Source of the DNA: Eubacteriales bacterium
GTDB lineage: Bacteria; Bacillota; Clostridia; Oscillospirales; CAG-272
Assembly (NCBI GenBank): GCA_045631745.1
Contig: JAZQVI010000068.1
Span: 852 to 64,851 of the forward strand
DNA length: 64,000 nt
Direction: 5' to 3'
A program made the translations under genes and the position numbers. The notes beneath the pieces were generated by a model. It searched no databases, was not told where the DNA came from, and saw only the letters and a list, made by a program, of their open reading frames with translations. This document shows, in pieces, positions 1-27,544 of the stretch. The stretch's first letter is position 1; each line of letters starts with the position of its first letter.

Positions 1-422
1 CACCCGATACAAATACTCCCGATGCTACTCCCGATGAGAAGGACGGCATTTCGGCAGGTGCAGTGATCGCGATCGTGATCGGAGCGGTTCTACTCCTTGG
101 GGCTGGCGGATTTGCGATCTTCTGGTTTGTGATCAAGAAGAAGGAAACAGAGCAGCCCGAAACACAACCTGCAATGGCAGAAAAGGCGCCCGAAACGGCA
201 GAAGAGATTGCCAAAGCTGAGGAATGCGCCGTAGTTGTGGATGCTTCCGCGACGGAAGACGATTCCGTAGAAGATGCGGTCGCAGAGAATATCCCCGCAG
301 AAGAAATCTCCTCTGAAGAAACCGCAACTTCCGAAGAGGAAGCGACTGCAGAGGAACTCCCCTCCGAGGAAGATGCGTCGGCTGAAGAAGCTACCTCGGA
401 AGACGGCAACGATCAGGCATAA
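1..422 (+). CDS. 3' end of a membrane-anchored surface protein gene (5' part lies outside the window): end of ectodomain, one TM helix, acidic tail
   Basis: Frame 3 is open from nt 3 (PDTNTPDATPDEKDGISAGA...) into the listed ORF 63..422. Hydrophobic segment AVIAIVIGAVLLLGAGGFAIFWFVI is followed by KKK and a ~90-aa E/A/S/T/D-rich tail. Stop at 420-422. Confidence 0.6.
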   Translation, partial: PDTNTPDATPDEKDGISAGAVIAIVIGAVLLLGAGGFAIFWFVIKKKETEQPETQPAMAEKAPETAEEIAKAEECAVVVDASATEDDSVEDAVAENIPAEEISSEETATSEEEATAEELPSEEDASAEEATSEDGNDQA

Positions 423-973: not shown

Positions 974-1176
974 CGTATGGGATTGTAAGGGATTTTTGAG
1001 CTATGAAAATGAAAAAAGTCCTTGAAAATCAAGGACTTTTTTTGGCGGAGAAGGAGAGATTTAGAACTCAAGCGTGCGCTGTAATTCTGTTGTGATCTTC
1101 TATTCAATCTATGCGCACGCTCTGGCGTAATTGCCGCCAGCGGCAATTCGCGGAGTCCTGCATCATACACTTTTTT
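974..1176 (-). repeat. Direct repeat copy A (~203 bp). Contains a terminator-like hairpin, a degenerate tRNA-Ser T-arm/acceptor 3' half, and two further hairpins.
   Basis: Matches 10617-10822. nt 1044-1176 are identical to 10689-10822 apart from one extra T in the copy B T-run; the left ~70 nt are diverged. 1043-1068 TGGCGGAGAAGGAGAGATTTAGAACT resembles the 3' end of the tRNA at 10868 with one inserted A. Confidence 0.9.
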
Positions 1177-1191
1177 GGCGGAGAAGGAGCG
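1176..1191 (-). repeat. Short displaced copy of the tRNA-Ser 3' end (att-core-like, about 15 nt)
   Basis: tGGCGGAGAAGGAG equals the first 14-15 nt of the plus-strand image of the tRNA 3' end at 10868-10882. Sequence diverges immediately afterwards (cgttgcatc versus agatttgaa). Confidence 0.7.
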
Positions 1192-1351
1192 TTGCATCTC
1201 ATGTACACAACGCTTTTCCGTTGCTTTTTTATTTTTTAAATAAATTCTTTGAGAGATTTCAATTGTGACAATTTTGCATCATCTATTTACTTTTCTAAGC
1301 ATTTATGATATGATAAATACAGAAATAATGAAGTGGAAAGGTTTTTTCGAG

Positions 1352-2506
1352 ATGAAATCGTATGCAAAGAATGCAAAAACGGTCAAAAACGAAAACCGCG
1401 CGTTGGTTTTGAGGCATATTCGCCAGAAGATGGTCTCTCGCGCCGACATCTGCAAGAAAACCGGAATGCCAAAATCCTCGGTCACAAGAATCACCAACGA
1501 GCTGATCGAGGAAGGTCAGCTTTTGGAAATTGGCGTCACCGATTCGTCCTACGGAAGAAAGCCGATTCTGTTGGACATTGTCGCCGATTACAGATATGCC
1601 GCGGGGATCGCCTTGCATCGCAGCAGCTTTTACGTTTGCATCGTGAATCTCAAATCGGAAATCCTGGCGTATGAAAGCTATAAAATTGAAAACGGCGATG
1701 ACCCATACGAACTGTTGGACCGCGCCTACGAGCAGATCCTTCGCTTCCTTGAGGAATTGAACATTCCGCCCCAAAAATGTATCGGCATTGGCGTCAGCGC
1801 CCCCGGCCCCGTGGAGTACGTCAAGGGCACGATTCTGAACCCTCCCGACTTCAAGCTTTTCCATCACGTTGAGGTGGGGGAATATCTCCGAGCAAAATCA
1901 GGACTTCCCGTCATGCTTGACAACAACTCTGTTTTGAATGCGATGCAAGAATACGCAACGCAGCCAACAAGTGTTTTTCAAAATTCCATGTTTGTCAATA
2001 TTTTTGGCGGGATTGGATCTGCGGTATTGACAGGTGGAAAGGTATTTCGCGGAATCGGGGGATTCTCGGGAGAGTTTGGGCACACGGGAATCCAGCCGGA
2101 CGGACTCCCCTGCCCCTGCGGAAACGTGGGATGCCTGGAATGCTACGTTTCGCTCAAGGCATTGAAAAAAGCATATCAATTCGAATCCTATGAGGAAATG
2201 GTTGACCTGGCATACGAGGGGGACGAAAAGGCAAACAAAATGTTGCGATTCATGGCAGAGAAATTTTCCTACGCCATGGTCAACGCGATCAACCTCTTCG
2301 ATTTGGATGCAATCATCTTTTACGGTGAGTATTCCTACCGCCCACAGCGTTTGGCGGAGCTACTCCAATCGCACGTTGAATCCCGCGCAATGGTGGCTCG
2401 CGCACATGACGTCAAGGTGATCTTCTCCGAGATGAGTCCCGTTCTCGCCCGCGCCTCGGTCTGCACCGCGATCATCAACGCGTATTTTGAACAAAAATTT
2501 AATTGA
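1352..2506 (+). CDS. ROK-family transcriptional regulator (N-terminal winged HTH plus ROK sugar-binding domain, NagC/XylR-like)
   Basis: Part of ORF 1265..2506; likely start is ATG 1352 (MKSYAKNAKTVKNENRALVLRHIRQ...). HTH-like SRADICKKTGMPKSSVTRITNELIEEG. ROK zinc motif GEFGHTGIQPDGLPCPCGNVGCLECYVS. Confidence 0.85.
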   Translation: MKSYAKNAKTVKNENRALVLRHIRQKMVSRADICKKTGMPKSSVTRITNELIEEGQLLEIGVTDSSYGRKPILLDIVADYRYAAGIALHRSSFYVCIVNLKSEILAYESYKIENGDDPYELLDRAYEQILRFLEELNIPPQKCIGIGVSAPGPVEYVKGTILNPPDFKLFHHVEVGEYLRAKSGLPVMLDNNSVLNAMQEYATQPTSVFQNSMFVNIFGGIGSAVLTGGKVFRGIGGFSGEFGHTGIQPDGLPCPCGNVGCLECYVSLKALKKAYQFESYEEMVDLAYEGDEKANKMLRFMAEKFSYAMVNAINLFDLDAIIFYGEYSYRPQRLAELLQSHVESRAMVARAHDVKVIFSEMSPVLARASVCTAIINAYFEQKFN

Positions 2507-2557
2507 CGATTTATGGGTGAATGGAATTATTTTTACGTTTCATTCGCCCATTTTCTC

Positions 2558-2587
2558 TTGACAGAGATAAGGGCGTTATGTTATAAT
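2558..2587 (+). promoter_or_regulatory. sigma-A type promoter of the glycoside-hydrolase operon
   Basis: TTGACA (2558-2563), 18-nt spacer, TATAAT (2582-2587). Confidence 0.6.
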
Positions 2588-2601
2588 AATTGTGAGCATT
2601 A

Positions 2602-2618
2602 AGTTCCATTGTGGAACT
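2602..2618. promoter_or_regulatory. Perfect 7-3-7 palindrome just downstream of the -10 box; candidate operator for the adjacent ROK regulator
   Basis: AGTTCCA TTG TGGAACT lies between the promoter and the GH2 start codon. Confidence 0.45.
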
Positions 2619-2673
2619 ATATTGGCTTTGTTTTATAATGTATAAAATTTTGCTCTTTCGAGGTGAAAACAAA

Positions 2674-5022
2674 ATGAAGCAGATTTTGAATACGTTTCAA
2701 GGGAAATGGATACTGACAATGGTTCCGAACGCAGAGGTTGAGGCAACGCAATTTAATCCTCGCACCATGCGCGAATTGGGGGCTTGCGCGTATCAAAGCA
2801 TTTCGGCAACGGTTCCCGGAAACTTTGAATTGGATCTTTTTCAAGCGGGACTAACGCCCGATCCTTTCTTTGGGCAAAATCCTTGGGCGTATCAGCAATA
2901 CGAGAACCGCCATTTGTGGTATGCGACCACCTTTGAGGCGGACTGCGCAGGGGATGCGAATACCTTTTTGAGGTTTGAGGGCATTGACACCGTTGCGGAC
3001 ATTTATCTCAACGGAACGCTTTTGGGACACGTGGACAATATGCTGATCGAGCACGAATTTTGCGTGCAGGGATTACTCAAGCCCGCGAATGAACTCGTGG
3101 TGCATATTTTCCCCACCATGATCGAAGCGCGGAAATATCCTCTGACGAACCGTTGCCACGCGCAGCCTCACACCTATGCGGCTCTGCAGATTCGGAAGTG
3201 CGCGTCCATGTTCGGTTGGGACATCATGCCCCGTTTCGTTTCGGGGGGCATTTGGAAGCCCGTGACGCTGATTCAAAAAAGAAACGAGCGGATCGAGCAA
3301 TTTTATCTGACTACCATCTCTCTTGAGGCAGACAGATCCAAGGCAAGCATGAGGGCGTTTGTGGAGCTCCACACCCCCATAGATGACATCAGAGATCTGA
3401 AACTGACGGTCGAGGGCGTTTGCGGAGATTCAAGATTCTACCAAGAGGCTGATTTCTGGCACACCTTCGGGGTCATGCACATTACGCTTGACAACCCCAA
3501 GCTTTGGTATCCGAAAAATGCGGGCGAGCAGTTCCTCTATGACGTAACGGTAAGGCTCTATCGCAAGGATACGCTATGCGACGAGATCTCCTTCCGTCAC
3601 GGCGTTCGCACCGTGGAGCTGCTCCGCACTTCTACCACCGATAAGGATGGTTCGGGAGAATTTGTTTTTAAGATCAACGGAAAAAAGGTGTTCTGCCTGG
3701 GAACCAACTGGGTGCCGCTCAACGCCTTCCCCTCCCAGAATCCCAAGCATTTGAAGCCCGCGCTGGAGATGCTGGACGATCTGGGCTGTAATATGGTTCG
3801 TTGCTGGGGTGGAAACGTATACGAGGACGACGCCTTCTATGATTTCTGCGACGAGCGCGGAATCATGATCTGGCAAGACTTTGGAATGGGCTGCGGTGTG
3901 TATCCGCAGGACAACGGATTTGTTGCAAGAATCCAAAAGGAAGCGGTTTCGGTCATTCACCGTCTGCGCTCTCACGCAGCTCTGGTCCTGTGGGCAGGGG
4001 ACAACGAAAACGACCTGGCACACGACTGGTCTGCCGGCAAAAGCATTGACCCCAACACCAATATCGTGAGCAGAAAGATCCTGCCGAGCGTGCTGCTCGA
4101 GCATGATCACGTGCGCCCCTATCTGCCGTCCTCTCCCTACGTGGACGAGGAAGCGTTTCGAACGGGACGACCTACCTCGGAGGAGCATTTGTGGGGGCCG
4201 AGAGATTATTTCAAGGGATCGTTCTACGGAGAGAGCGTTTGCCATTTCGCATCCGAAACGGGATACCACGGCTGTCCCTCTCCGGAGTCCTTGAAGAAAT
4301 TTATTTCCGCGGAAAACGTTTGGCCGATCACCGACGCAAACGGTGTTCCGAACAATGACTGGATCTGCCACGCCGCCGAAATGGAGCCGGGTCTGAAGGG
4401 CAAATATTCCTACCGGATTTGGCTGATGATGAGCCAGGTGAGCACCCTGTTCGGCAATCTCCCCACAGATCTGGACGCCTTTGCAAAGGCAAGTCAGATC
4501 TCCCAGGCAGAGGCGGTCAAGTATTTCATTGAGCGCTTCCGACTCAGCAAATGGAGACGGACGGGCATTTTGTGGTGGAACCTGATTGACGGTTGGCCGC
4601 AGATCTCCGACGCGGTCGTGGATTGGTATCAATGCAAAAAGCTTGCTTACCATTATATCAAGCGTTCCCAAAAGTCGCTTTGCCTGATGTTTGACGAGCC
4701 GAAGGACGGAAAACTGTCCCTGTATGCAGTCAATGATCTTTCAACGTCACAAACTGTTCGGTTTACTGTGACCGATTTGACAAACGGTCGTGTTCTTTAT
4801 AGCGAAAAAGCCACGGTTGACGGAGATGTGTCAAAATGTGTTGTCTCGATTCCCGAATGCAAGGACTATGCCTTCCTGTATGTGGAATGGGAAACCGACG
4901 AGGGCATCAAGGGAAGCAATCACTATATTACAAAATCGCGCGATATTTCGCTGGAGCAATATTTTAGAGACATTGAAAAGGCAAAATACAACGAATTTGA
5001 CGGGTTTGATAATGAAATCTGA
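2674..5022 (+). CDS. Glycoside hydrolase family 2, beta-mannosidase-like; no signal peptide
   Basis: Part of ORF 2611..5022; ATG 2674 preceded by AGGTGA. Motifs NMVRCWGGNVYEDDAFYDFCDERGIMIWQDF and WAGDNEND are typical of GH2 beta-mannosidases as I recall them. 782 aa. Confidence 0.8.
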   Translation: MKQILNTFQGKWILTMVPNAEVEATQFNPRTMRELGACAYQSISATVPGNFELDLFQAGLTPDPFFGQNPWAYQQYENRHLWYATTFEADCAGDANTFLRFEGIDTVADIYLNGTLLGHVDNMLIEHEFCVQGLLKPANELVVHIFPTMIEARKYPLTNRCHAQPHTYAALQIRKCASMFGWDIMPRFVSGGIWKPVTLIQKRNERIEQFYLTTISLEADRSKASMRAFVELHTPIDDIRDLKLTVEGVCGDSRFYQEADFWHTFGVMHITLDNPKLWYPKNAGEQFLYDVTVRLYRKDTLCDEISFRHGVRTVELLRTSTTDKDGSGEFVFKINGKKVFCLGTNWVPLNAFPSQNPKHLKPALEMLDDLGCNMVRCWGGNVYEDDAFYDFCDERGIMIWQDFGMGCGVYPQDNGFVARIQKEAVSVIHRLRSHAALVLWAGDNENDLAHDWSAGKSIDPNTNIVSRKILPSVLLEHDHVRPYLPSSPYVDEEAFRTGRPTSEEHLWGPRDYFKGSFYGESVCHFASETGYHGCPSPESLKKFISAENVWPITDANGVPNNDWICHAAEMEPGLKGKYSYRIWLMMSQVSTLFGNLPTDLDAFAKASQISQAEAVKYFIERFRLSKWRRTGILWWNLIDGWPQISDAVVDWYQCKKLAYHYIKRSQKSLCLMFDEPKDGKLSLYAVNDLSTSQTVRFTVTDLTNGRVLYSEKATVDGDVSKCVVSIPECKDYAFLYVEWETDEGIKGSNHYITKSRDISLEQYFRDIEKAKYNEFDGFDNEI

Positions 5023-5051
5023 AAGCCACTTGAAAAAGGCAGGGTGTACGT

Positions 5052-5984
5052 ATGAAAATCGGAGTTGACATCGGCGGAACAAAATGCGCCGTCGTTCTTG
5101 GCGACGAGCGGCAGATCGTTCGGAAAATAAAATTTCCTACAACGAATTGCAAGGAAACGCTTGACCATATTATCCGGGTGATCGAAGAGATTGGAACAGG
5201 GGATGCGATCGGCATCAGCTGCGGAGGCCCTTTGGATACGCAAAAGGGGCTCATCCTCTCTCCCCCCAATCTTCCCGATTGGGATCGGGTAGCGATTGTC
5301 GATATTCTATCAAAGAAATTTGGCATTCCCGCGTATTTGTGCAACGACGCCAACGCCTGCGCCTTGGCAGAATGGAAATACGGTGCAGGGCAAGGCACCC
5401 AAAACATGGTGTTCCTGACCTTTGGCACGGGACTTGGCGCAGGGCTGATCCTGAACGGGCAGCTTTACAACGGAACCAACGGAATGGCGGGCGAGGTCGG
5501 TCACATTCGACTGAGTGAGCACGGTCCCGTAGGCTACGGCAAGGCAGGATCCTTCGAGGGTTTTTGTAGCGGAAACGGCCTTTCGCAGATCGGCAGAGCA
5601 CTGGCATTGGAACAATTACAGATCGGAAAAACGCTCCCGTACTGTCAAAGCGTGAGCGAGCTGGAGAAGATCAATGCAAAAGTGCTGGCGGATTACGCCG
5701 ATGAGGGAGAGCCCGTGGCATTGAAGGCATATCAGATCTGCGGAGAGATGCTTGGACGGGGCCTGTCTATCATCGTAGACATACTAAACCCTGAGGTTAT
5801 TGTAATCGGAAGCATTTTTCAACGCTCCGAGGAGCTGCTCAGAGAACACATGGAGCGCTATCTGAATTGGGAAAGCCTGGCGATTTCCAATTCGGTATGC
5901 CGCGTTCTTCCCACCAAGCTTGGCGAGAGCATTGGCGACTATGCGGCACTTTCGGTTGCGTTTGAAGGAAAAAATATTCACTGA
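5052..5984 (+). CDS. ROK-family sugar kinase (glucokinase or hexose kinase-like) lacking the Cys zinc motif
   Basis: MKIGVDIGGTKCAVVLGD (ATP-binding DxGGT); LCNDANACALAE; GEVGHIRLSEHGPVGYGKAGSFEGFCSG replaces the usual CxCGxxGCxE. Confidence 0.8.
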   Translation: MKIGVDIGGTKCAVVLGDERQIVRKIKFPTTNCKETLDHIIRVIEEIGTGDAIGISCGGPLDTQKGLILSPPNLPDWDRVAIVDILSKKFGIPAYLCNDANACALAEWKYGAGQGTQNMVFLTFGTGLGAGLILNGQLYNGTNGMAGEVGHIRLSEHGPVGYGKAGSFEGFCSGNGLSQIGRALALEQLQIGKTLPYCQSVSELEKINAKVLADYADEGEPVALKAYQICGEMLGRGLSIIVDILNPEVIVIGSIFQRSEELLREHMERYLNWESLAISNSVCRVLPTKLGESIGDYAALSVAFEGKNIH

Positions 5985-5995
5985 GGTAAAACAGA

Positions 5996-6640
5996 ATGAA
6001 TCATTTTTTAGGTGAATTACTCACGCGATATCCGGCACTGAACGGATGTCTGGAGGAAATTGAATCGGCGGCACAGATGATGCTGGAAACCTACCGCCGA
6101 GGCGGCAAGATCCTGGTGTGTGGAAACGGCGGCTCCTGCTCGGATTCCGATCATATCGTGGGAGAACTCATGAAAGGATTTTTGGGAAAGCGAAAAATGC
6201 CGCTCGCAGAGCAAGCACGCTTTCGTGATGCGCTCGGCGCGGATGCCGAGGATCTGATCGAAAAATTGCAGTGCGGGATCCCCGCGATTTCCCTGCCTGC
6301 TCAAAGCGCAATTCTCTCCGCCTTTGCAAATGACGTGGACGCGGAGCTGGTCTACGCGCAGCTGGTGTTTGGGTACGCCAAGGCAGAGGATCTGTTGATC
6401 GGACTTTCCACATCGGGAAATTCCAAGAACGTCGTAGCCGCTGCAAAGGTTGCCAAGGCGATGGGAATGCGCTCCCTTGCATTGACAGGGGAAAAAGAAA
6501 GTGCACTGTCCACAATCTGCAACTGCACGATCCGCGTACCCGAAACCGAGACCTTCAAGGTTCAGGAACTGCATTTACCGGTATATCATTACCTTTGCGC
6601 TTGGGCTGAAGCGGAAATATTCGGATGCGAAAGGCATTGA
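5996..6640 (+). CDS. SIS-domain sugar-phosphate isomerase, GmhA (phosphoheptose isomerase)-like
   Basis: GGKILVCGNGGSCSDSDHIVGEL, LIGLSTSGNSKNVVAAAKVAKAMGM..LALTG and IRVP....VQELHLPVYH align by eye with E. coli GmhA motifs. Confidence 0.75.
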   Translation: MNHFLGELLTRYPALNGCLEEIESAAQMMLETYRRGGKILVCGNGGSCSDSDHIVGELMKGFLGKRKMPLAEQARFRDALGADAEDLIEKLQCGIPAISLPAQSAILSAFANDVDAELVYAQLVFGYAKAEDLLIGLSTSGNSKNVVAAAKVAKAMGMRSLALTGEKESALSTICNCTIRVPETETFKVQELHLPVYHYLCAWAEAEIFGCERH

Positions 6641-6658
6641 ACACAGGAGAAAAAACTC

Positions 6659-8260
6659 ATGAAAATCAGATTACCCGATCTATATTGGATCTACGGAGAG
6701 GACGGAAAAAGAATTTGGTCCTCCGATTCGACAAATAATCAAGCGGACGTGCGCGTGGATATGCGGCTGGAGCAGGATACGCTGACCCCCTGCATACAGG
6801 CAAACGAGACGCCCTTGTGCTACGTTGTCCTGAAGTGGTTCTTTGGCGACAGTGAGCGCCGCGCAGAGCCCGTCCGCGTCCTAGGTGACGCGTGGGAGCG
6901 CGCCTATGGCGACATGGAGTGGAAAGGGGTTGTAGCCGAGCGTTGTATGCCTTGGTACTGCCTGGTTTCCAACGGCAGCGATTCCGACCTGTGTACAGAA
7001 GGCCGACACACCGAGTGCTTCGGCGTAAAGGTTCGTCCGTCATCGTTTGCAATCTGGCAATATGATGCGGGCGGTGTCACGCTGACCCTGGACATCCGCT
7101 GTGGCGGACGGGGAGTGATTCTGGGCGGAAGAACGCTCCAAACGGCAGAGGTTATCTTCGGCGACTATCGTAATATGAGCGCATATCAGAGCGGAAAGCT
7201 CTTCTGCAAGGAAATGTGCCAGGATCCCATCTTCCCGAAAGCACCCGTATATGGATTTAACAACTTCTATTATGCCTACGGCGTCAGCTCCGCGGAGGAG
7301 GTCAGACGGGATGCCGGAAAGCTGGCGGAATGCACCAAGGGGCTGCAAAAGCCCTTCATGGTGATTGACGACTGCTGGCAGCCCAACGCCTGTGACGGGC
7401 CGTGGGATCGCGGAAACGAAAAATTCCCCGACATGAATCTCTTGGCAGAGGAGATCTCCAAGCTGGGCGTCGATCCCGGAATCTGGCTCCGTCCTTTGTC
7501 TCAAATGGCGCCCCTTGATCTTCCGGCGCATTGGAGACTGGAGAGAAACGGATGCTTTTTGGATCCGTCCGAGGAAGGTGTTCTCGATTACGTCAAGCAA
7601 CAGTTTCAGAGACTGGTCGACTGGGGATACCGTTTGATCAAATTCGATTTTGTAACCTACGACCTGTTTGGAAAATGGGGCTGGGAAAGCCCGATCTTCC
7701 TGGCACAGGGAGACAACTGGAGCTTCCACGATCGCTCCAAGACCTCTGCCGAGATCATTCTAAACCTGTATCGAGCCATTCGAGAGGCGTCGGGTGATGC
7801 GGTTCTGATCGGATGCAACGCGGTCAGCCATTTGTGCGCCGGACTGGTTGAGATCAACCGTACAGGAGATGATACCAGTGGTCGCGATTGGCGTCGCACA
7901 AGACAGTTCGGTGTCAACACCCTTGCATTCCGTTCGATGCAGAACGGTACCTTCTACGTTGGAGACGCCGACTGCGTGGGACTGACCAATCTCGTTCCGT
8001 GGGGAATGAATGAAAGATGGATGTATCTGCTCTCAAGAAGCGGCTCCCCCTTGTTTATCAGTTGGGATCCGTCTGCCGACAATGAGGAAATTCACAAAGC
8101 GGTATGCGATGCCCTGCAGGTTAATTCGGTTCAGACCGACGAGCTGATCCCCTTGGATTGGATGGAAAACAACTGCCCGAGCCGATGGTTGCTCAACGGA
8201 GAAATCCTTGAGATTGACTGGTTCGGTCAAGAGGCTTACGATATCATTGAAAAAAGATAA
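6659..8260 (+). CDS. Clan GH-D glycosidase, alpha-galactosidase-like (GH36/GH27-type); no signal peptide
   Basis: MVIDDCWQ (DDxW), LIKFDF (KxD), NRTGDD and GDADCVG motifs. 533 aa. Confidence 0.55.
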   Translation: MKIRLPDLYWIYGEDGKRIWSSDSTNNQADVRVDMRLEQDTLTPCIQANETPLCYVVLKWFFGDSERRAEPVRVLGDAWERAYGDMEWKGVVAERCMPWYCLVSNGSDSDLCTEGRHTECFGVKVRPSSFAIWQYDAGGVTLTLDIRCGGRGVILGGRTLQTAEVIFGDYRNMSAYQSGKLFCKEMCQDPIFPKAPVYGFNNFYYAYGVSSAEEVRRDAGKLAECTKGLQKPFMVIDDCWQPNACDGPWDRGNEKFPDMNLLAEEISKLGVDPGIWLRPLSQMAPLDLPAHWRLERNGCFLDPSEEGVLDYVKQQFQRLVDWGYRLIKFDFVTYDLFGKWGWESPIFLAQGDNWSFHDRSKTSAEIILNLYRAIREASGDAVLIGCNAVSHLCAGLVEINRTGDDTSGRDWRRTRQFGVNTLAFRSMQNGTFYVGDADCVGLTNLVPWGMNERWMYLLSRSGSPLFISWDPSADNEEIHKAVCDALQVNSVQTDELIPLDWMENNCPSRWLLNGEILEIDWFGQEAYDIIEKR

Positions 8261-8273
8261 AGCGAGGATTACC

Positions 8274-9500
8274 ATGAGCAAAATAGATGTAAGATCCTTT
8301 GGCGCCGTGGGCGATGGCGTGACTCTGGACACCTTGGCGATTCAGCGTGCGATCGATTCTCTGGAAAAAGGCGATACCTTGGTGTTTTCGGACGGAAGCT
8401 TTGTCACGGGCACGCTGGCACTGAAAAGCGATATTACAATTCTGATCGAGGACAATGCTGAGATTTGCGGCTCCCGCAATTTCGCACACTACCGTGACTG
8501 CGGATTCTATCACAACGAAATGATTCAGACCGTGTCGCTGATCTACGCCTTAAATTGTGAAAATATTACCTTCTGCGGAAAAGGAAAGATCCAGCTCTCC
8601 GGTGACGCGTTCATGAAATTCAACACCTATCACCATCTGCCGCGCGAGATCGATCCTGCCACCATGACAAAAGACTACACGGTGCAAACCGTTGTAGCCG
8701 CAAAGGAACGCCCCACCCAACCCATCTTCTTTGATTCCTGCAAGCACGTTCGTATAGAGGGAATCTTCGTTTGCAACGCGCCCTGCTGGGGACTGGTCTT
8801 TTCCAACTGCGAGGACGTTACGCTGGAGGATCTTTACGTGGACAATCACGCGCGTATCCCCAACAATGATGGCGTTCATTTCTCTGCTTCAAAGGATATT
8901 GTGGTGAAAAATTGCACCTTCCTATGCGGAGACGATTGCATTGCGGCTACCTGCATTACAAATTGGAACGGCGTTTGCAAGAATATCGAAATCACCGATT
9001 GCCTGCTCTCCTCACGCTCGGCGGCAATTCGCCTCGGTCACCTCTCAAGTCACGTGAGAAACGTTCGGGTGAACAACGTCAAGGTTCTTCCCTCCACCCG
9101 TGCGATCATTATCTTTGCGGGAGATGGCGGCAAGGTAGAGCATATTGAGGTCGAAAATTTGACGGCTGAGACCTGCATCCACACAGGAGACTGGTGGGGC
9201 AAAGGAGAGGGTTTTGTCCTCTGCGCCAAGAACTCGAATGGCGCGATTTCAGATATCACCTTCAAAAACTGCTCCTTCGTCCAGGAGAATCCCTCCATCA
9301 TCGCAGGTGAGGCAGGCAATATATCGAACGTAACGCTCTCAAACTGCGAGCACACCTACCGAAGAGGAAACGCGCATCCTTATTACGTTGGGAAAATAGA
9401 CCTTCAGCCCAACGTTCCCGGACTCGCGACGGCACCTTTCCAAGCAGAGGATAAGATTTATATCACCGAGGACGGTTGTCGCAATCTACAGATCAAATAA
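8274..9500 (+). CDS. Glycoside hydrolase family 28 (polygalacturonase / pectate-lyase-fold beta-helix); no signal peptide
   Basis: Part of ORF 8208..9500; start ATG 8274 (MSKIDVRSFGAVGDGVTLDT...). Motifs NNDGVHF and GDDCIA. Confidence 0.75.
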   Translation: MSKIDVRSFGAVGDGVTLDTLAIQRAIDSLEKGDTLVFSDGSFVTGTLALKSDITILIEDNAEICGSRNFAHYRDCGFYHNEMIQTVSLIYALNCENITFCGKGKIQLSGDAFMKFNTYHHLPREIDPATMTKDYTVQTVVAAKERPTQPIFFDSCKHVRIEGIFVCNAPCWGLVFSNCEDVTLEDLYVDNHARIPNNDGVHFSASKDIVVKNCTFLCGDDCIAATCITNWNGVCKNIEITDCLLSSRSAAIRLGHLSSHVRNVRVNNVKVLPSTRAIIIFAGDGGKVEHIEVENLTAETCIHTGDWWGKGEGFVLCAKNSNGAISDITFKNCSFVQENPSIIAGEAGNISNVTLSNCEHTYRRGNAHPYYVGKIDLQPNVPGLATAPFQAEDKIYITEDGCRNLQIK

Positions 9501-9560
9501 CCGAATGCGGAACACCCGCTTTCAAAACAACATCACGACTCAAAAAAGCGAGGATAAAAC

Positions 9561-10382
9561 ATGAAAGAAGTAAATTGGAAGGAATGGATCATTCCAAACG
9601 AGGATGAAAAGCCGCTCGATTCTCTTTGCGCAGATGGCGGCATGAGTGGGATCTTTCGGACGGTTGCGTGCGTAGGAGACAGTCTTTCCTCGGGAGAATT
9701 TGAGGCAACCAACGAAAACGGCGAGAAAACATATCACGATATGTTTGAATACTCATGGGGACAGTTCTTCGCGCGAATGAGCGGGAATACCGTATATAAT
9801 TTCTCTCGCGGTGGAATGACCGCAAAGGAGTATTGTGAATCCTTTGCAGATGCAATGGATTATTGGAATCCCGAAAAGAAATGCAGAGCGTATGTCATTG
9901 CACTTGGCGTAAACGATCTGTTCAATCAGGGACGGTTGCTCGATGCGCAGGAAATCGGCTCGACAAAGGATATCTGCCTTGAGGACTGGAGACAAAATGC
10001 GCATAATTTTATGGGATACTACGCACAGATCATTCAACGATATAAGGAAATCCAGCCCGATGCAAAGTTCTTCCTGATGGCAATGCCGCGTAGCGAGACC
10101 TGGGATGCCGCCCGTGACGAGCTATGCAAAACGCATCGCAAAATGCTTTATGATCTCGCGGCGTTCTTCTCCAACACCTACGTCCTGGATCTCTATGAAT
10201 ACGCCCCCATTTATGACGAGGACTTCAAGCGCGTGTACTATCTGGGCGGACACCTGAACCCCATGGGATACGTTCTTACGGCAAAAATGCTGGCTTCCTA
10301 TCTGGATTACATCATCCGCCACAACTACAATGATTTCAAACAGATCGGATTTGTCGGCACCCCCTTCCGATACAACGAGTAA
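9561..10382 (+). CDS. SGNH/GDSL-family hydrolase (probable carbohydrate esterase)
   Basis: Block I ACVGDSLSSGE, block III ALGVND. 273 aa, no signal peptide. Confidence 0.75.
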   Translation: MKEVNWKEWIIPNEDEKPLDSLCADGGMSGIFRTVACVGDSLSSGEFEATNENGEKTYHDMFEYSWGQFFARMSGNTVYNFSRGGMTAKEYCESFADAMDYWNPEKKCRAYVIALGVNDLFNQGRLLDAQEIGSTKDICLEDWRQNAHNFMGYYAQIIQRYKEIQPDAKFFLMAMPRSETWDAARDELCKTHRKMLYDLAAFFSNTYVLDLYEYAPIYDEDFKRVYYLGGHLNPMGYVLTAKMLASYLDYIIRHNYNDFKQIGFVGTPFRYNE

Positions 10383-10436
10383 AGGGATAAGGCTACTTCC
10401 ATTTTCGTGGACTAAAAAAAGAACTGACAAACAAAA

Positions 10437-10465
10437 CAGGGGCTGCGTCATTTACGCAGCCCCTG
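10437..10465. terminator. GC-rich 12-bp hairpin after the SGNH gene
   Basis: caggggctgcgt cattt acgcagcccctg. The U-tract is on the minus-strand side (ttttgtttg); the plus side is followed by a second weak A/T hairpin (aaaaaagcc..ggctttttt). Confidence 0.45.
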
Positions 10466-10565
10466 CGCAAAAAAGCCGACTAGGCTTTTTTGACGCGTGG
10501 AATTTGCGTTTTTTGCCTGTAAAACAGGCAAAAATTGCGGTGTTTAGCCGCAAAGCAAAAACGAC

Positions 10566-10607
10566 GGGGGTGAGTCACCTATGCATCTATGCATTTGACT
10601 CACCCCC
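10566..10607. terminator. 12-bp hairpin with 18-nt loop, T-rich on the plus side
   Basis: gggggtgagtca ...atgcatctatgcat... tgactcaccccc followed by tttcttatt. Confidence 0.4.
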
Positions 10608-10616
10608 TTTCTTATT

Positions 10617-10822
10617 CGTATGGGATTTGTAAGGGATTTTAGCCCATCGAAATGAAAAAAGTCGTTGAAAATCAAGGACTTTTTTCATGGCGGAGAAGGA
10701 GAGATTTAGAACTCAAGCGTGCGCTGTAATTCTGTTGTGATCTTCTATTCAATCTATGCGCACGCTCTGGCGTAATTGCCGCCAGCGGCAATTCGCGGAG
10801 TCCTGCATCATACACTTTTTTT
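10617..10822 (-). repeat. Direct repeat copy B (~206 bp), partner of 974-1176
   Basis: See copy A. The tRNA-like segment is at 10688-10713. Confidence 0.9.
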
Positions 10823-10825
10823 CAA

Positions 10826-10867
10826 CAAAAAAGATAGGCAACACCTTACGGCATTGCCTATCTTTTT
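10826..10867 (-). terminator. Intrinsic terminator of tRNA-Ser
   Basis: gataggcaa / ttgcctatc stem directly 3' of the tRNA on the minus strand, followed by a T run. Confidence 0.7.
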
Positions 10868-10959
10868 TGGCGGAGAAGGAGAGATTTGAACTCTCGCGCC
10901 GGTATAACCGGCCTACACCCTTAGCAGGGGCGCCTCTTCGGCCTCTTGAGTACTTCTCC
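10868..10959 (-). tRNA. tRNA-Ser (anticodon GCU), class II with long variable arm, CCA encoded
   Basis: The reverse complement folds by hand. Acceptor GGAGAAG/CTTCTCC. D arm CTC..GAG. Anticodon stem CGCCC/GGGTG with loop CT-GCT-AA. Variable arm GCCGG-TTATA-CCGGC. T arm GAGAG-TTCAAAT-CTCTC. 3' end G-CCA. Confidence 0.92.
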
Positions 10960-11007: not shown

Positions 11008-11036
11008 ATTATACACAATTTTATCCGCTTTGTCAA
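11008..11036 (-). promoter_or_regulatory. sigma-A type promoter for tRNA-Ser
   Basis: Minus strand TTGACA (11036-11031), 17-nt spacer, TATAAT (11013-11008). Confidence 0.65.
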
Positions 11037-11144: not shown

Positions 11145-13814
11145 TCAGTACCCTTTTTTACCCTTAACCTTCCTCCAGATCCATTTCCTCAAAATATCGA
11201 AAGGGAACACAAGTGATGCCATGAGCATCGTCACCCCCAGCTCTCTTGGAGTGAGCGGAACCGTTCGCAACACACTGCCGCCGATGTACACAAACAGAAT
11301 CTGTATTACCAATATCGCAACCATAATTCCCAGGAATACAGGGTTCTGCTTCAGCCCTGCTGAAAGCTTTAGTCGATCCGTTCTTGCATTGAAGCAGTTA
11401 AAGACCGACGCAAAAATGAACAATGCGAAGAATGCGGTGAGCAGATAGAGGTTGTTCTCATGGGGGCGAAATTGAGACGTGACGAGAGGGCATTTCAAAA
11501 ATAACAAACACAGCGCCACCGTAAATCCTCCAAGAACGGCAATCTCATCCACCATGTAGCCATTCAGAATTCCCGTTCCCCGTTTTTTCGGCTTTTCGTT
11601 CATGTATTCCGCCAGGGGTGCCTCTCCCGCAAACGCCAAGCCCCCGAGCGTATCCATGATGAGGTTGATCCAAAGCATCTGTACCACCGTAACAGGTGTA
11701 TCAACACCAAGGAAGGGACAGATCATGGTCACCCCTACCGCCGAAAAGTTCATGGTAAGCTGCAACGCAATAAATTTTCGGATGCTCTTAAAAATACTTC
11801 TTCCGTAAAGCACCGCCTTGACAATGGACGCTAAATTATTATCCAGTATTACGATATCCCCTGCATCCTTTGCGACCTGAGTACCGCCCCCCATTGAAAA
11901 TCCGATATCCGCGCGTCGGAGAGCGGGGGCATCATTGATCCCGTCTCCCGTCATACCGGTAACCAACTCCATCTCCTGCGCCACCCGAACCAATCGGCTC
12001 TTATCGGTCGGCAGCGCCCTTGCGACCACCGAAAGCCTTGGCAAAAGCTCCTTGAGCTGAACGTCCGAAAGCTTCGACAGCTCCTCTCCCGTCAGTGCCA
12101 CCGGAGTTTTGGCGGTTTGGATCCCGCACATTTGTGCAATCGCCGATGCTGTTTCCTTGTTATCCCCCGTAATCATAATGACCTGAATCCCCGCGCGATG
12201 CAGATCTGATACCGCACCAGGGGCTTCCCGACGGATGGGATCGGAAAGACATAGGACAGACACCAAAACAAGACCACCCCTTACCCTGTCTCGATGAGAG
12301 GCGGCAGGAATATCCTCGGCAGACAACGCGAGCAGCAAACACCGGTTTCCCCTTTTTGTTCTCTCTGACAGGGCACTCTCTATCTTCTTTTTTGAATATG
12401 CCCCCATACTTCCATCCGGATAGATCGCGCTTTGAACATACGGCAAAAGTTTCTCGGGAGCTCCCAGAAGAAAGGTCATGCTGTTTCTCCCCTTGTAGCT
12501 GACAGCTGCATACTTTCTCTCACTTTCAAAACGCAGTCTTGAAAACACGCGGTATCCTTCGAGGTCAGGAAGCGCAGCGATCCCCTCGAGAAGCGCACGA
12601 TCGGTTGCATTTCCGCCAATCGCACGTCCACCCTCTCCCATCATTGCCTCTCCTCCGCGAAGTCCAAGGGAGAGCAGCTCTGCAAAAAATCGTCCCCTTA
12701 AGAGAATGGACTCTGCCGTAGGGCAAACACCGCCATCTGCAGTCAGAACCTCGGTCAACTTCATTTTTCCTTCGGTCAGCGTGCCCGTTTTGTCTGTAAA
12801 CAGCAGATTCATGCTCCCCGCCGCCTCGATCCCGACCGGCTTTCTCACCAGCACATTGTCTCTGACCATTCTGCGGATATTTCCCGAAAGCACAACTGCA
12901 ATCATCATGGGAAGCCCCTCGGGAACGGCTACCACAATCACCGTCAAACCAAGCGTGAAGGCGTGAAAGAGCTTAGACAGGAGATACGGCGCATCCAAAA
13001 GCTTGATCCGAATGACCTCCCATCGCATTCCGCTATCCAAAAGGAACACATGGAACAAATATGCCAGCGTCACTAAAATCGCCGCAACATATCCCAGCGC
13101 GCTGATCTGTTTTGCAAGCTTGGCAAGACGGATCTTGAGGGGACTGTCTCTCTGCTCCATCTGCACCTCTCTTGAGATCTGTCCCAAAAAGGTTGCGTCG
13201 CCCACCGAGGTGACGCCCATCTCTCCCCCGCCTGCCGTTACGGTGCAACCCCGAAACAAGGCTGATGGGGAGGTTGGATCCCTTGAAACATTGTCAGACG
13301 GAAGCTTGCTCACCTCCCGACTTTCCCCCGTCATGGCAGATTGATCGCTGGCGAGAGCTCCCGCCAAAAGAAGTCCGTCCGCCGGGATCCGTTCTCCTGC
13401 GCAAAGCAGAACAATATCCCCAACCACAACCTCGCTCATGGGAATCTCGCACACCCGTCCCTCCCGACGAACGCGGCACACCACCTTTTCATTCTCTTTT
13501 GACAACTCCTCAAACGCCCGCTCGGAGGAACACTCCGACAAAGTAGAGATGAATGCCGCTAAAAAAACGGCAATGGCAATCCCAACCGTCTCCACCCAAT
13601 CCGCACCTCGAACGGCAAGAATCAGATTGACCGCCAGCGCTCCTAAAAGAATTCGAATAACGGGGTCGTTTAAATTCCCCAAAAACCGTTTCCAAAAGGA
13701 TTTTCCCTTCTGTTTTGATAACACGTTCCGTCCAAATCGACTTGCCGATGACTCAACCTCTTCCTCCGCCAAGCCCACTCGACGAAAATCCTCCGCCCTT
13801 TTGAATTCTGTCAT
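11145..13814 (-). CDS. P-type cation-transporting ATPase, P2 (Ca2+-ATPase-like) family
   Basis: Part of ORF 11145..13862; start ATG 13814 preceded by GGAGGGA. Motifs FTDKTGTLTEGKM, VPEGLP and MTGDGINDAPALRRADIG. Confidence 0.85.
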   Translation of the reverse strand: MTEFKRAEDFRRVGLAEEEVESSASRFGRNVLSKQKGKSFWKRFLGNLNDPVIRILLGALAVNLILAVRGADWVETVGIAIAVFLAAFISTLSECSSERAFEELSKENEKVVCRVRREGRVCEIPMSEVVVGDIVLLCAGERIPADGLLLAGALASDQSAMTGESREVSKLPSDNVSRDPTSPSALFRGCTVTAGGGEMGVTSVGDATFLGQISREVQMEQRDSPLKIRLAKLAKQISALGYVAAILVTLAYLFHVFLLDSGMRWEVIRIKLLDAPYLLSKLFHAFTLGLTVIVVAVPEGLPMMIAVVLSGNIRRMVRDNVLVRKPVGIEAAGSMNLLFTDKTGTLTEGKMKLTEVLTADGGVCPTAESILLRGRFFAELLSLGLRGGEAMMGEGGRAIGGNATDRALLEGIAALPDLEGYRVFSRLRFESERKYAAVSYKGRNSMTFLLGAPEKLLPYVQSAIYPDGSMGAYSKKKIESALSERTKRGNRCLLLALSAEDIPAASHRDRVRGGLVLVSVLCLSDPIRREAPGAVSDLHRAGIQVIMITGDNKETASAIAQMCGIQTAKTPVALTGEELSKLSDVQLKELLPRLSVVARALPTDKSRLVRVAQEMELVTGMTGDGINDAPALRRADIGFSMGGGTQVAKDAGDIVILDNNLASIVKAVLYGRSIFKSIRKFIALQLTMNFSAVGVTMICPFLGVDTPVTVVQMLWINLIMDTLGGLAFAGEAPLAEYMNEKPKKRGTGILNGYMVDEIAVLGGFTVALCLLFLKCPLVTSQFRPHENNLYLLTAFFALFIFASVFNCFNARTDRLKLSAGLKQNPVFLGIMVAILVIQILFVYIGGSVLRTVPLTPRELGVTMLMASLVFPFDILRKWIWRKVKGKKGY

Positions 13815-27402: not shown

Positions 27403-27452
27403 TTCGTGCCTCCGTAGAACTCATTTAGGCTTCGTACAAGTTTTACTACCCC

Positions 27453-27481
27453 AGTATAGCATAATTTCATAGAAAAATCAA
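27453..27481 (-). promoter_or_regulatory. sigma-A type promoter of the 980-aa hydrolase gene
   Basis: Minus strand TTGATT, 17-nt spacer, TATACT. Confidence 0.5.
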
Positions 27482-27492
27482 TGATGTAATAA

Positions 27493-27530
27493 CAAAAACC
27501 GCCTCCGCAGAAAAAATTCTGCAGAGACGG
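27493..27530 (-). terminator. Terminator after the second P-type ATPase
   Basis: ccgtctctgcag / ctgcggaggcgg stem (with G-U pairs) followed by TTTTT on the minus strand. Confidence 0.6.
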
Positions 27531-27544
27531 TCGTTCTGTAATTT

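Follow-up and report, generated by a model that had tools for sequence, protein, structure and literature searches.

The segment between positions 1190 and 10867 of the window (the whole 64,000-nt stretch analysed, from Eubacteriales bacterium (CAG-272), assembly GCA_045631745.1, contig JAZQVI010000068.1, positions 852-64,851 of the forward strand) is probably, with a likelihood of about 0.7, a 9.7-kb genomic island without an integrase gene, equivalent to a cis-mobilizable element (CIME) and located at the 3′ end of tRNA-Ser(GCU) within a tandem array. The modules at this locus, namely the tRNA body, a unit termed U, the island and the flanks, combine differently between strains and always join exactly at a short core from the tRNA 3′ end. 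The features of the locus are as follows.

3-422, plus strand: 3′ end of a gene for a membrane-anchored surface protein with an acidic tail, left chromosomal flank (open reading frame to the stop at 422; no Pfam match)
423-964, no strand: AT-rich non-coding tract (GC 0.341)
974-1042, minus strand: T2′ module, terminator hairpin (1012-1042) plus about 35 nt; older copy of 10617-10687
1043-1176, minus strand: unit U, left copy, 134 nt (134/134 against 10688-10821)
1176-1189, minus strand: far attachment-site core, the displaced last 14 nt of tRNA-Ser and left boundary of the island (exact match to 10868-10881)
1190-1212, no strand: hp23, inverted repeat of 23 nt (arms of 8 bp, spacer of 7 nt), next to the far core in every case
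10617-10687, minus strand: T2 module inside the island, terminator hairpin
10688-10821, minus strand: unit U, right copy, with a pseudo tRNA 3′ end at 10688-10713
10822-10867, minus strand: T1, intrinsic terminator directly after the tRNA and tRNA-proximal end of the island (16-bp perfect inverted repeat, then a T run)
10868-10881, minus strand: near core, in the acceptor and 3′ end of the tRNA
10868-10959, minus strand: intact tRNA-Ser(GCU), the sole tRNA called there (ARAGORN; Rfam tRNA, 49.1 bits)
11008-11036: tRNA promoter (consensus, 12/12)
11145-13814, minus strand: Ca-type P-type ATPase, conserved right chromosomal flank (Pfam)

ARAGORN and Rfam returned the same coordinates for the tRNA, in agreement with an earlier note on this DNA. 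The 13-mer GGCGGAGAAGGAG, which is the tRNA 3′ terminus, occurs four times on the plus strand, at 1044, 1177, 10689 and 10869, against 0.13 occurrences expected from shuffled sequence with one mismatch allowed; none of 100 shuffles reached four, so a match at chance frequency, which would have spoken against the island, does not account for the copies. The repeated tRNA end is 14 nt once the T at 1176/10868 is included, and identity around the two junctions extends to 20 nt (1170-1189 and 10862-10881). The recurrence of the last 14-15 nt at 1176-1191, as described before, was therefore real as an exact copy, but its extent is 14 nt (1176-1189). The island lies immediately 3′ of the intact tRNA, and its DNA begins at 10867.

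The DNA between the cores at 1177-1189 and 10869-10881 encodes a ROK regulator and six sugar genes (GH2, ROK kinase, SIS isomerase, 533-aa protein, GH28 and GDSL); the seven operon genes previously counted beside the regulator were one too many.

1310-2506, plus strand: ROK-family transcriptional regulator, 398 aa, NagC/Mlc-like (Pfam ROK 1e-42 and an HTH domain)
2558-2587: GH2 promoter (consensus TTGACA-18-TATAAT)
2674-5022, plus strand: GH2 glycoside hydrolase (Pfam Glyco_hydro_2_N2, 4e-36)
5052-5984, plus strand: ROK-family sugar kinase (Pfam ROK 5e-56; TIGR00744 1e-50, below its cut-off)
5996-6640, plus strand: SIS-domain sugar-phosphate isomerase, GmhA-like (Pfam SIS_2 and SIS; NCBIfam gmhA-like, below cut-off)
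6659-8260, plus strand: 533-aa protein, weakly alpha-galactosidase-like (alpha-galactosidases in PDB, E about 0.006)
8274-9500, plus strand: GH28 polygalacturonase/rhamnogalacturonidase-like hydrolase (Pfam Glyco_hydro_28; NCBIfam PglB-like 3e-51, below cut-off)
9561-10382, plus strand: GDSL esterase, last cargo gene (Pfam Lipase_GDSL_2)

With its ROK repressor, the operon is probably self-regulated, and it would serve the breakdown of pectin-type glycans. The ROK regulator was 100% identical to protein P0121, and its next homologue, at 67%, lies in an unrelated context (L093/L094); recorded gene models of the regulator use other start codons. GH28 is annotated as a 408-aa gene in contigs L091 and L095, the exact GDSL esterase protein is present on JGI contig L081, and L096 carries an operon of 75% identity in another gene order and without a junction. 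The 533-aa protein generated no match in Pfam, NCBIfam or PHROG, and the idea that it is a hidden recombinase was ruled out, the weak similarity to alpha-galactosidases being the only one found.

No integrase or recombinase domain was detected in any open reading frame of the island, and remnants of conjugation, relaxase, integrase or phage genes were absent from it, the intergenic space being too small to hide any. In the right flank, no recombinase was found among the 20 largest open reading frames tested across 21-51 kb, and the 15-21 kb region was judged from the way it aligns with infB-nusA-rimP in L083/L084. As no conjugation or phage gene remnant is present, there is no support for an origin as an ICE, IME or prophage, and a recombinase acting on the island is hypothetical because no integrase occurs in the island or in the right-flank proteins scanned to about 51 kb. 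The statement that the island has lost its integrase holds as to the absence of the gene, but the loss was assumed, as no remnant is present. Comparison of composition with the flanks, proposed in the earlier note, did not set the island apart: GC content (0.506 vs 0.53) and tetranucleotide usage (r = 0.89 vs 0.894 on average for flank chunks of the same size) are not atypical, and the sole difference is a GC-skew sign reversed relative to the surrounding replichore.

An unoccupied counterpart of the site was found in contigs L082 and L083 of a related species, which carry an identical tRNA and in which similarity to the window stops exactly at 10867. The ATPase of L082/L083 is 87% identical in protein, and the order IF2-NUDIX-PFK-ATPase-tRNA is common to L082-L084 and the window. 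Downstream of the tRNA, L082/L083 have a single core, another terminator, genes that are unrelated, and no island. The empty site that the earlier note had suggested looking for thus exists in another species, whose DNA is about 80-86% identical; neither a same-species empty site nor a circular form of the island was recovered. The island's far core in contig L086 borders a terminator that shares 39 of 42 positions with the one following the tRNA directly in L082/L083, and therefore the L086 junction and the L082/L083 site make up an empty-site/far-junction pair. In a scan of genome contigs for the ATPase, the best match was 71% identical in protein, and the closest representatives are uninformative on the site because they carry tRNA-Ser(GGA), not GCU, there.

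The left end of the island is present on six metagenome contigs, with at least 99.2% identity to the window over the first 1.6 kb and 95.8-99.6% over the full length. Five contigs (L085-L089) reach the left junction; all have the same joining base as the window, and between them they add three kinds of flank to that of the window. Boundary use is identical across the six junction-carrying contigs (L081 and L085-L089). Overall, five sequence types were found left of the core and four right of it (tRNA body, U, hp23 plus ROK, and hp23 plus other DNA), and the core junctions amount to ten different combinations, all of which switch at the same base. The earlier description of a discrete, tRNA-bounded island is supported by the stop at 10867 in L082/L083, the terminator in L086 and the junction base shared by the five contigs. 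The different flanks could be different older modules in one hypervariable array and not independent insertions. The AT-rich tract at 423-964 was found in the window and L085 only, and leftward of about 908 the window is no longer matched by L087 and L088.

Flanks and island also differ in their degree of divergence. The left chromosomal flank of L085 is 98.7% identical to that of the window, a difference of 1.3% against 4.2% for the island (p = 2e-6), while in L087 the flank module is 91% identical and the island 98.5%. The L086 island is 99.4% identical to the window, and the islands of L086, L087 and L088 are the same but for 1-2 of 1600 nt and have different flanks. Because these near-identical islands have differing flanks, and because of the junction in L081 described below, exchange at the core is considered recent; the term fossil, used for the locus before, is not supported for an island whose copies are so similar.

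It is extremely unlikely that the variant junctions in L081 and L085-L089 are chimeras that the assembly created at the repeated core. In favour of chimeras, the contigs compared measure only 1.5-5 kb and come from short-read metagenome assemblies, and L095 breaks off at 10685, at the start of the exact 134-nt repeat; however, the sequence shared at the variant junctions is just 13-20 nt, below the usual assembly k-mers, and the same switching base is used in six contigs, each from a different sample or source. In L085, L087 and L088, which come from three sources, the island core is adjoined by the T2′ module, and the L086 flank is independently matched by L082/L083.

The variable flanks also bear on the possibility that the downstream region was duplicated locally and inherited vertically, with an ancestral operon and nothing mobile. 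Native composition, the resemblance of the T2 and U pairs to a segmental duplication and the absence of mobility genes fit such a history. It is nevertheless very improbable, and is largely refuted by the occurrence of one island allele beside different kinds of flank; the operon, U and T2 are all missing after the identical tRNA of the related species, homologues of the ROK regulator outside the island copies do not exceed the 67% of the one in an unrelated context, and the GC skew opposes that of the replichore.

Contig L081 reads T1-core-hp23-other DNA, with hp23, not the tRNA, following the core; this junction is element-to-element or attP-like. The neighbouring DNA in L081 comprises 740 nt with weak matches to collagen or tail-fibre motifs. 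Its identity as a prophage could not be established from these motifs, and neither the core nor hp23 was present in any of the viral loci matching them. A BLAST search of the attP-like junction against phages and plasmids returned no match. Every island copy carries hp23, which in L081 stands beside unrelated DNA, and it is probably part of the element-side attachment arm. In L087-L089, an A-to-G variant of hp23 converts a G.T pair of the stem into G-C. Viral scans with hp23 plus core gave 0 matches, and the sole return of the corresponding metagenome scan was the contig of L085 itself.

Joining at the core would be site-specific and catalysed by a tyrosine or serine integrase acting in trans, the presumed donor being another element that targets the same tRNA. 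Viruses do use this site: 26 IMG/VR viral contigs carry the tRNA-Ser(GCU) 3′ end, 13 of them as partial copies only, and in two (L171 and L179) a tyrosine integrase gene lies 50-375 nt from a 27-nt T-loop-type block (a 24-nt pattern plus 3 nt) of the same type as the end of unit U. The identity block of the integrase-bearing phages at this tRNA end differs from that of the island. A Xer/dif-type (IMEX) mechanism was set aside on inference, because the locus is near the replication origin (gidA-gidB-parA-parB), not the terminus, and because the crossover sites are tRNA-derived.

The joining could also have proceeded without a recombinase, by transformation or conjugation between related strains followed by homologous recombination at the conserved ATPase-tRNA side and illegitimate joining at 13-20 nt of tRNA-derived microhomology (homology-facilitated illegitimate recombination), in which case the cores would simply be the longest microhomology on offer. 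That no integrase was found in the island or the scanned flank proteins, that the right flank is conserved across relatives, that island composition is like that of the host and that junction identity reaches up to 20 nt all agree with this route, and a 13-nt microhomology guiding such joining could be counted against the island interpretation. We regard the route as rather unlikely, since it leaves unexplained the origin of the displaced core with the conserved hp23 adjoining it, the presence of hp23 plus core at the border of unrelated DNA in L081, and the precise gain or loss of U, which is bounded by cores on both sides. Moreover, illegitimate events usually scatter, whereas all junctions here fall at the same base, and use of this tRNA end is demonstrated by phages with tyrosine integrases.

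With the recombinase-dependent island as the preferred reading, the tRNA locus would be a tandem array of modules separated by cores, in which the 134-nt U is another module. The direct repeat formed by 974-1176 and 10617-10821 (95% identity over 206 columns) consists of two layers, U with 134/134 identical positions and 974-1042 against 10617-10687 with 62/72 (Fisher p = 2e-5), which matches the repeats of about 205 bp with an identical right and a diverged left part in the earlier note. Also as described there, 1043-1068 and 10688-10713 each contain a degenerate copy, with one extra base, of the T-loop and acceptor 3′ end of tRNA-Ser; U ends in this older, longer tRNA-end copy of the T-loop type. 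Contig L085 has the flank of the window with exactly one core and no U, so U is gained or lost core to core, and in L081 U is identical. The left copy of U may be the trace of an earlier insertion; alternatively, the island may have been duplicated in tandem and then reduced by core-to-core deletion. Two or more successive insertions, as put forward before, are thus plausible given the longer T-loop-type block at the U core, but duplication and deletion is an alternative, and L085 lacks U. No deletion through the 205-bp repeats was observed.

Only two copies of U occur in the 64-kb window, both at the tRNA-Ser(GCU) locus. A complete decayed tRNA was ruled out as its origin, as U has no 5′ acceptor strand and was undetected by ARAGORN and Rfam. 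It appears quite unlikely, though compatible with the island interpretation, that U is a structured small RNA gene with a tRNA-like CCA 3′ end and its own terminator. In line with such a gene, U is predicted to fold into two strong hairpins (MFE -42.2 kcal/mol, z = -3.1), a terminator hairpin follows immediately 3′, its identity (134/134) exceeds that of the adjacent module (86%) with the step exactly at the CCA end, and a weak homologue is possible downstream of the same tRNA in L082 (1/200 shuffles). Against it, U matched no Rfam family, no promoter was predicted upstream of the right copy, copies are near-identical only and hence give no covariation evidence, U is dispensable in L085, and a recent core-to-core duplication explains the identity step equally well. 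Copies were absent from the viral, JGI-subset, phage and plasmid collections, and a 33-mer from U gave 0 matches in the metagenome scan.

CIMEs are defined by the retention of both attachment sites without genes for integration or transfer; this definition and the accretion model come from PMC5704250. As in the CIMEs related to ICESt1/ICESt3 of Streptococcus thermophilus (PMC5704250), the island has attL/attR-type repeats of the target gene 3′ end, lacks integration and transfer genes, stands in a tandem array with other decayed modules, with one element-to-element junction (L081), and belongs to modules that are exchanged or deleted exactly at attachment-site cores. Unlike them, it shows no remnant of ICE or IME descent, and the genes it carries form a catabolic glycan operon, here in uncultured Clostridia of a gut or rumen-type lineage.

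The island also shares with tRNA-integrated prophages and islands the insertion 3′ of an intact tRNA with a displaced 3′ end at the far boundary, and the tRNA-Ser(GCU) end is used by the IMG/VR phages noted above. The tRNA identity blocks of such elements reportedly lie at the anticodon loop, the T-loop or the 3′ end, and the end of U matches the T-loop type. In those islands, however, the integrase is usually located beside the tRNA, a position occupied here by T1-U-T2. At 13-14 nt, confined to the acceptor stem, the identity block of the present island is very short, and it is accompanied by a conserved 23-nt inverted repeat. Integrative mobilizable elements (IMEs), phage satellites and PICI-type islands have an integrase of their own and, as a rule, genes for replication or mobilization. 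The island resembles them in small size (about 10 kb), site-specific location and a probable dependence on the functions of another element, but encodes no integrase, replication or mobilization gene.

The island is therefore an ordinary tRNA-targeted genomic island of a known kind that was recently reshuffled, and it leaves the view of tRNA-targeted islands unchanged; its value is that of an annotated case. It offers a clean natural example of a glycan-degrading operon as an attachment-site-flanked island without an integrase in uncultured Clostridia. The same allele, directly observed beside different flanks, would illustrate how carbohydrate-use traits can pass from strain to strain by borrowing the recombinase of another element at a tRNA hotspot. 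The case also points to a candidate integrase specific for tRNA-Ser(GCU), whose core would be short and lie in the acceptor stem.

It is decidedly unlikely that the island and U were moved by a mechanism undescribed for tRNA islands, either through a host or helper recombinase reading hp23 plus the short core or through U as a tRNA-like RNA in targeting or maintenance. If this were so, the L081 junction, with its acceptor-stem-plus-hairpin minihelix fold, would be a functional site and not a by-product.

ARAGORN identified a single tRNA in the window, an intact tRNA-Ser(GCT) on the minus strand at the position read by eye in the earlier note, and Rfam concurred (49 bits). On the plus strand its 3′ end reads GGCGGAGAAGGAG, which starts at 1044, 1177, 10689 and 10869, in one orientation throughout; the number of such core matches expected from shuffled sequence is 0.13, and none of 100 shuffles reached four. 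The copies at 1043-1068 and 10688-10713 run on into the T-loop with one base inserted (extended cores), and each marks where a 134-nt unit, termed U and present twice, starts on the left. The features of the locus are as follows.

Features of the island boundaries in the window
974-1042: terminator-containing module T2′
1043-1176: left copy of U, beginning with an extended core
1190-1212: hp23, a 23-nt inverted repeat beside the far core
10617-10687: terminator-containing module T2
10688-10821: right copy of U, beginning with an extended core
10822-10867: T1, a 46-nt intrinsic terminator between the right copy of U and the tRNA
10868-10959, minus strand: tRNA-Ser(GCT)

The two copies of U are identical at 134 of 134 positions, whereas the adjacent T2′ and T2 modules match at 62 of 72 (p = 2e-5 for the step in identity). 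The left copy of U directly adjoins a bare 14-nt tRNA end, with no T1 between them. In the direction of the tRNA, the near side of the locus reads tRNA - core - (T1 - U) - extended core - (T2 - cargo - hp23), followed on the far side by core - (U) - extended core - T2′ - flank.

The genes between the cores encode a ROK regulator, a GH2 enzyme, a ROK kinase, an SIS isomerase, a 533-aa protein, a GH28 enzyme and a GDSL esterase, that is, one regulator and six further genes rather than the regulator plus seven-gene sugar operon described previously, and no recombinase was found among them. As no sugar transporter is encoded among the island genes (1310-10382), uptake must depend on genes elsewhere in the genome. 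The 533-aa protein (6659-8260), kept in all island copies, generated no hits to Pfam, NCBIfam or PHROG families; its sole matches were weak ones in PDB to GH36/GH27/GH31 alpha-galactosidases (E about 0.006), and it may be an unclassified glycoside hydrolase. The closest homologue of the ROK regulator outside the island copies showed 67% identity and lies in an unrelated context. The compositional comparison proposed in the earlier note gave a divided result: in GC content and tetranucleotide usage the island is typical of the window, but its GC skew is opposite in sign to that of the 12-44 kb flank.

The best match to the ATPase upstream of the tRNA among GTDB representatives, from which the species itself is absent, was 71% identical; closer relatives and near-identical island copies came from a large protein collection. 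Two JGI contigs of a related species, L082 and L083, encode an ATPase with 87% protein identity to that of the window and share with it the order IF2-NUDIX-PFK-ATPase-tRNA-Ser(GCT), with an identical tRNA sequence. Their DNA similarity to the window stops at 10867, the base after the tRNA, and downstream of the tRNA they carry one core, another terminator (terminator D in L082) and unrelated genes. An empty site was therefore found at an identical tRNA in a related species; neither a same-species empty site nor a circular form of the island was recovered.

The left end of the island was found on six contigs from six samples or sources, whose identity to the window is 99.2% or higher in the first 1.6 kb and 95.8%-99.6% over their full lengths. 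These variant contigs are short; five reach the left junction, and L090 begins within the island.

Left flanks of the island in metagenome contigs
L085: the window's own flank, with U absent and one core
L086: a terminator 39/42 identical to the one directly after the tRNA in L082/L083
L087, L088: the T2′ module, with other DNA beyond
L089: a different terminator

In every case, the order at the junction was core, then CGTTGC(A/G)TCTCAT(G/A)TACACAACG (hp23), then the ROK promoter, with the same switching base. The other end of the island is carried by the JGI contig L081, which is 99.5% identical to window 9186-10881 and spans the GDSL gene, T2, U, T1 and the core; there the core is followed by hp23, then by unrelated DNA and a convergent gene for a collagen-like membrane-anchored protein, and no tRNA is present. 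In the window plus eight further contigs, modules flank the core in ten different combinations; site-specific recombination at an attachment core derived from a tRNA would be expected to give this pattern. L082, with terminator D beside the tRNA, and L086, with terminator D at the far end of the island, behave as an attB/attR pair, and L081 is an element-to-element junction, tandem or attP-like. Recombinase-free joining, through a homologous anchor combined with 13-20 nt of microhomology, is a minority alternative that leaves unexplained both the invariant switching base and the occurrence of hp23 plus core beside unrelated DNA.

Island and flank differ in their histories. L086, L087 and L088 show 1-2 differences per 1600 nt in the island, yet their flanks are unlike; relative to the window, L085 shows divergence of 1.3% for the flank and 4.2% for the island (p = 2e-6); and L087 is 91% identical in the flank module and 98.5% identical in the island. 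The left flanks could represent various older modules within a single hypervariable array instead of separate insertions, and under either view exchange occurs at the core. These near-identical alleles in different contexts, together with the tandem-type junction of L081, contradict the description of the island as a fossil, and no deletion through the 205-bp repeats, as had been proposed, was observed; what was seen is that U is gained or lost from core to core. The four cores, L082/L083 and L086 uphold the central proposal of a tRNA-Ser-targeted island bounded by displaced tRNA ends and lacking an integrase; that it lost its integrase, and that two successive insertions took place, is plausible.

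hp23 itself comes in two variants: in L087-L089, G replaces A and thereby converts a G.T pair of the stem into G-C. An additional change in L089 falls in the loop. This hints weakly that the hairpin or inverted repeat is under constraint. At the L081 junction (1686-1745, minus strand), a 7-bp acceptor-like stem (GGAGAAG/CTTCTCC) surrounds the hp23 hairpin and ends in GCC(A), giving a tRNA-like minihelix with a folding energy of -23 kcal/mol (z = -3.96, 0/200 shuffles), which could be either functional or a by-product of recombination.

The 3′ end of tRNA-Ser(GCU) was present on 26 IMG/VR contigs, 13 of which (within L156-L181) carry partial copies. Eleven partial copies begin in the anticodon loop (CCCCTGCTAAGGG...) and the other two in the T-loop, indicating that phages target this tRNA with two or more classes of integrase specificity; both T-loop-type contigs carry a tyrosine integrase gene 50-375 nt away. 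The tRNA-Ser(GCU) end is thus truly used by integrating elements. Because the T-loop-type viral blocks are of the same type as the end of U and adjoin tyrosine integrase genes, U is best read as what is left of an earlier element belonging to that class. Two histories, neither of which is preferred, could account for U copies that are 100% identical while T2 and T2′ are 86% identical, and for the lack of U in L085: a U-carrying island may have landed beside a resident U, or a tandem duplication of the island may have been followed by core-to-core loss of the second cargo copy. The same mini-module layout as in U occurs in a distant Bacillota MAG (L065:4525-4870). There, tRNA-Ser(GCT) precedes, in order, a terminator, about 130 nt, a displaced copy (26 nt) of the T-loop and acceptor 3′ end of the tRNA, and another terminator similar to the first; no integrase lies between the copies. 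In L082, a segment about 1 kb downstream of the tRNA and directly after a terminator (6466-6530) weakly resembles the 5′ 60 nt of U (local score 33, attained by 1/200 shuffles).

Cis-mobilizable elements (CIMEs) are defined as keeping both attachment sites while lacking integration genes, and their accretion is modelled through tandem arrays (PMC5704250). The island likewise keeps both attachment sites without integration genes, and its tandem array suits the accretion model. Taken together, the island is real and clearly bounded, sits at a tRNA integration hotspot, encodes no integrase, keeps both attachment sites and bears evidence of recent modular exchange; it is CIME-like, lies within a tandem array and is of a kind already known. 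Its value lies in annotation and in exemplifying a mobile glycan-utilisation operon, and it would not surprise a specialist. We consider it very improbable that U is a functional tRNA-like RNA or that hp23 and the short core constitute an undescribed recombination system.

In the right flank, the products of the ATPase and PFK genes and of the 20 largest ORFs across 21-51 kb were scanned against Pfam; no recombinase was found among them, and all functions were unrelated to mobility, including recG, priA, fmt, def, gidA, gidB, parA and parB. The content of the infB-nusA-rimP stretch (about 15-21 kb) was inferred from alignment to L083/L084. With gidA, gidB, parA and parB located at 46.3-50.8 kb, a flip of gene orientation at about 44.4 kb and the minimum of cumulative GC skew falling near 52-56 kb, the window is close to the replication origin. 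The island operon is transcribed head-on to replication, with a GC skew opposed to its surroundings. Also encoded in the conserved flank (24460-30193) are a GH106 alpha-L-rhamnosidase-like protein and a second P-type cation ATPase, so that pectin or rhamnose-related catabolism extends beyond the island. To the left, a 540-nt non-coding tract of 34% GC (423-964), located between the surface-protein gene and T2′, had no match in Rfam; it is common to the window and L085, and other sequence takes its place in L087 and L088. In five more distant contigs (L002:13084-13176, L003, L004, L008 and L010), whose ATPases are 63-67% identical, the tRNA downstream of the ATPase gene is tRNA-Ser(GGA), not GCU, so another serine isoacceptor occupies the same syntenic slot.
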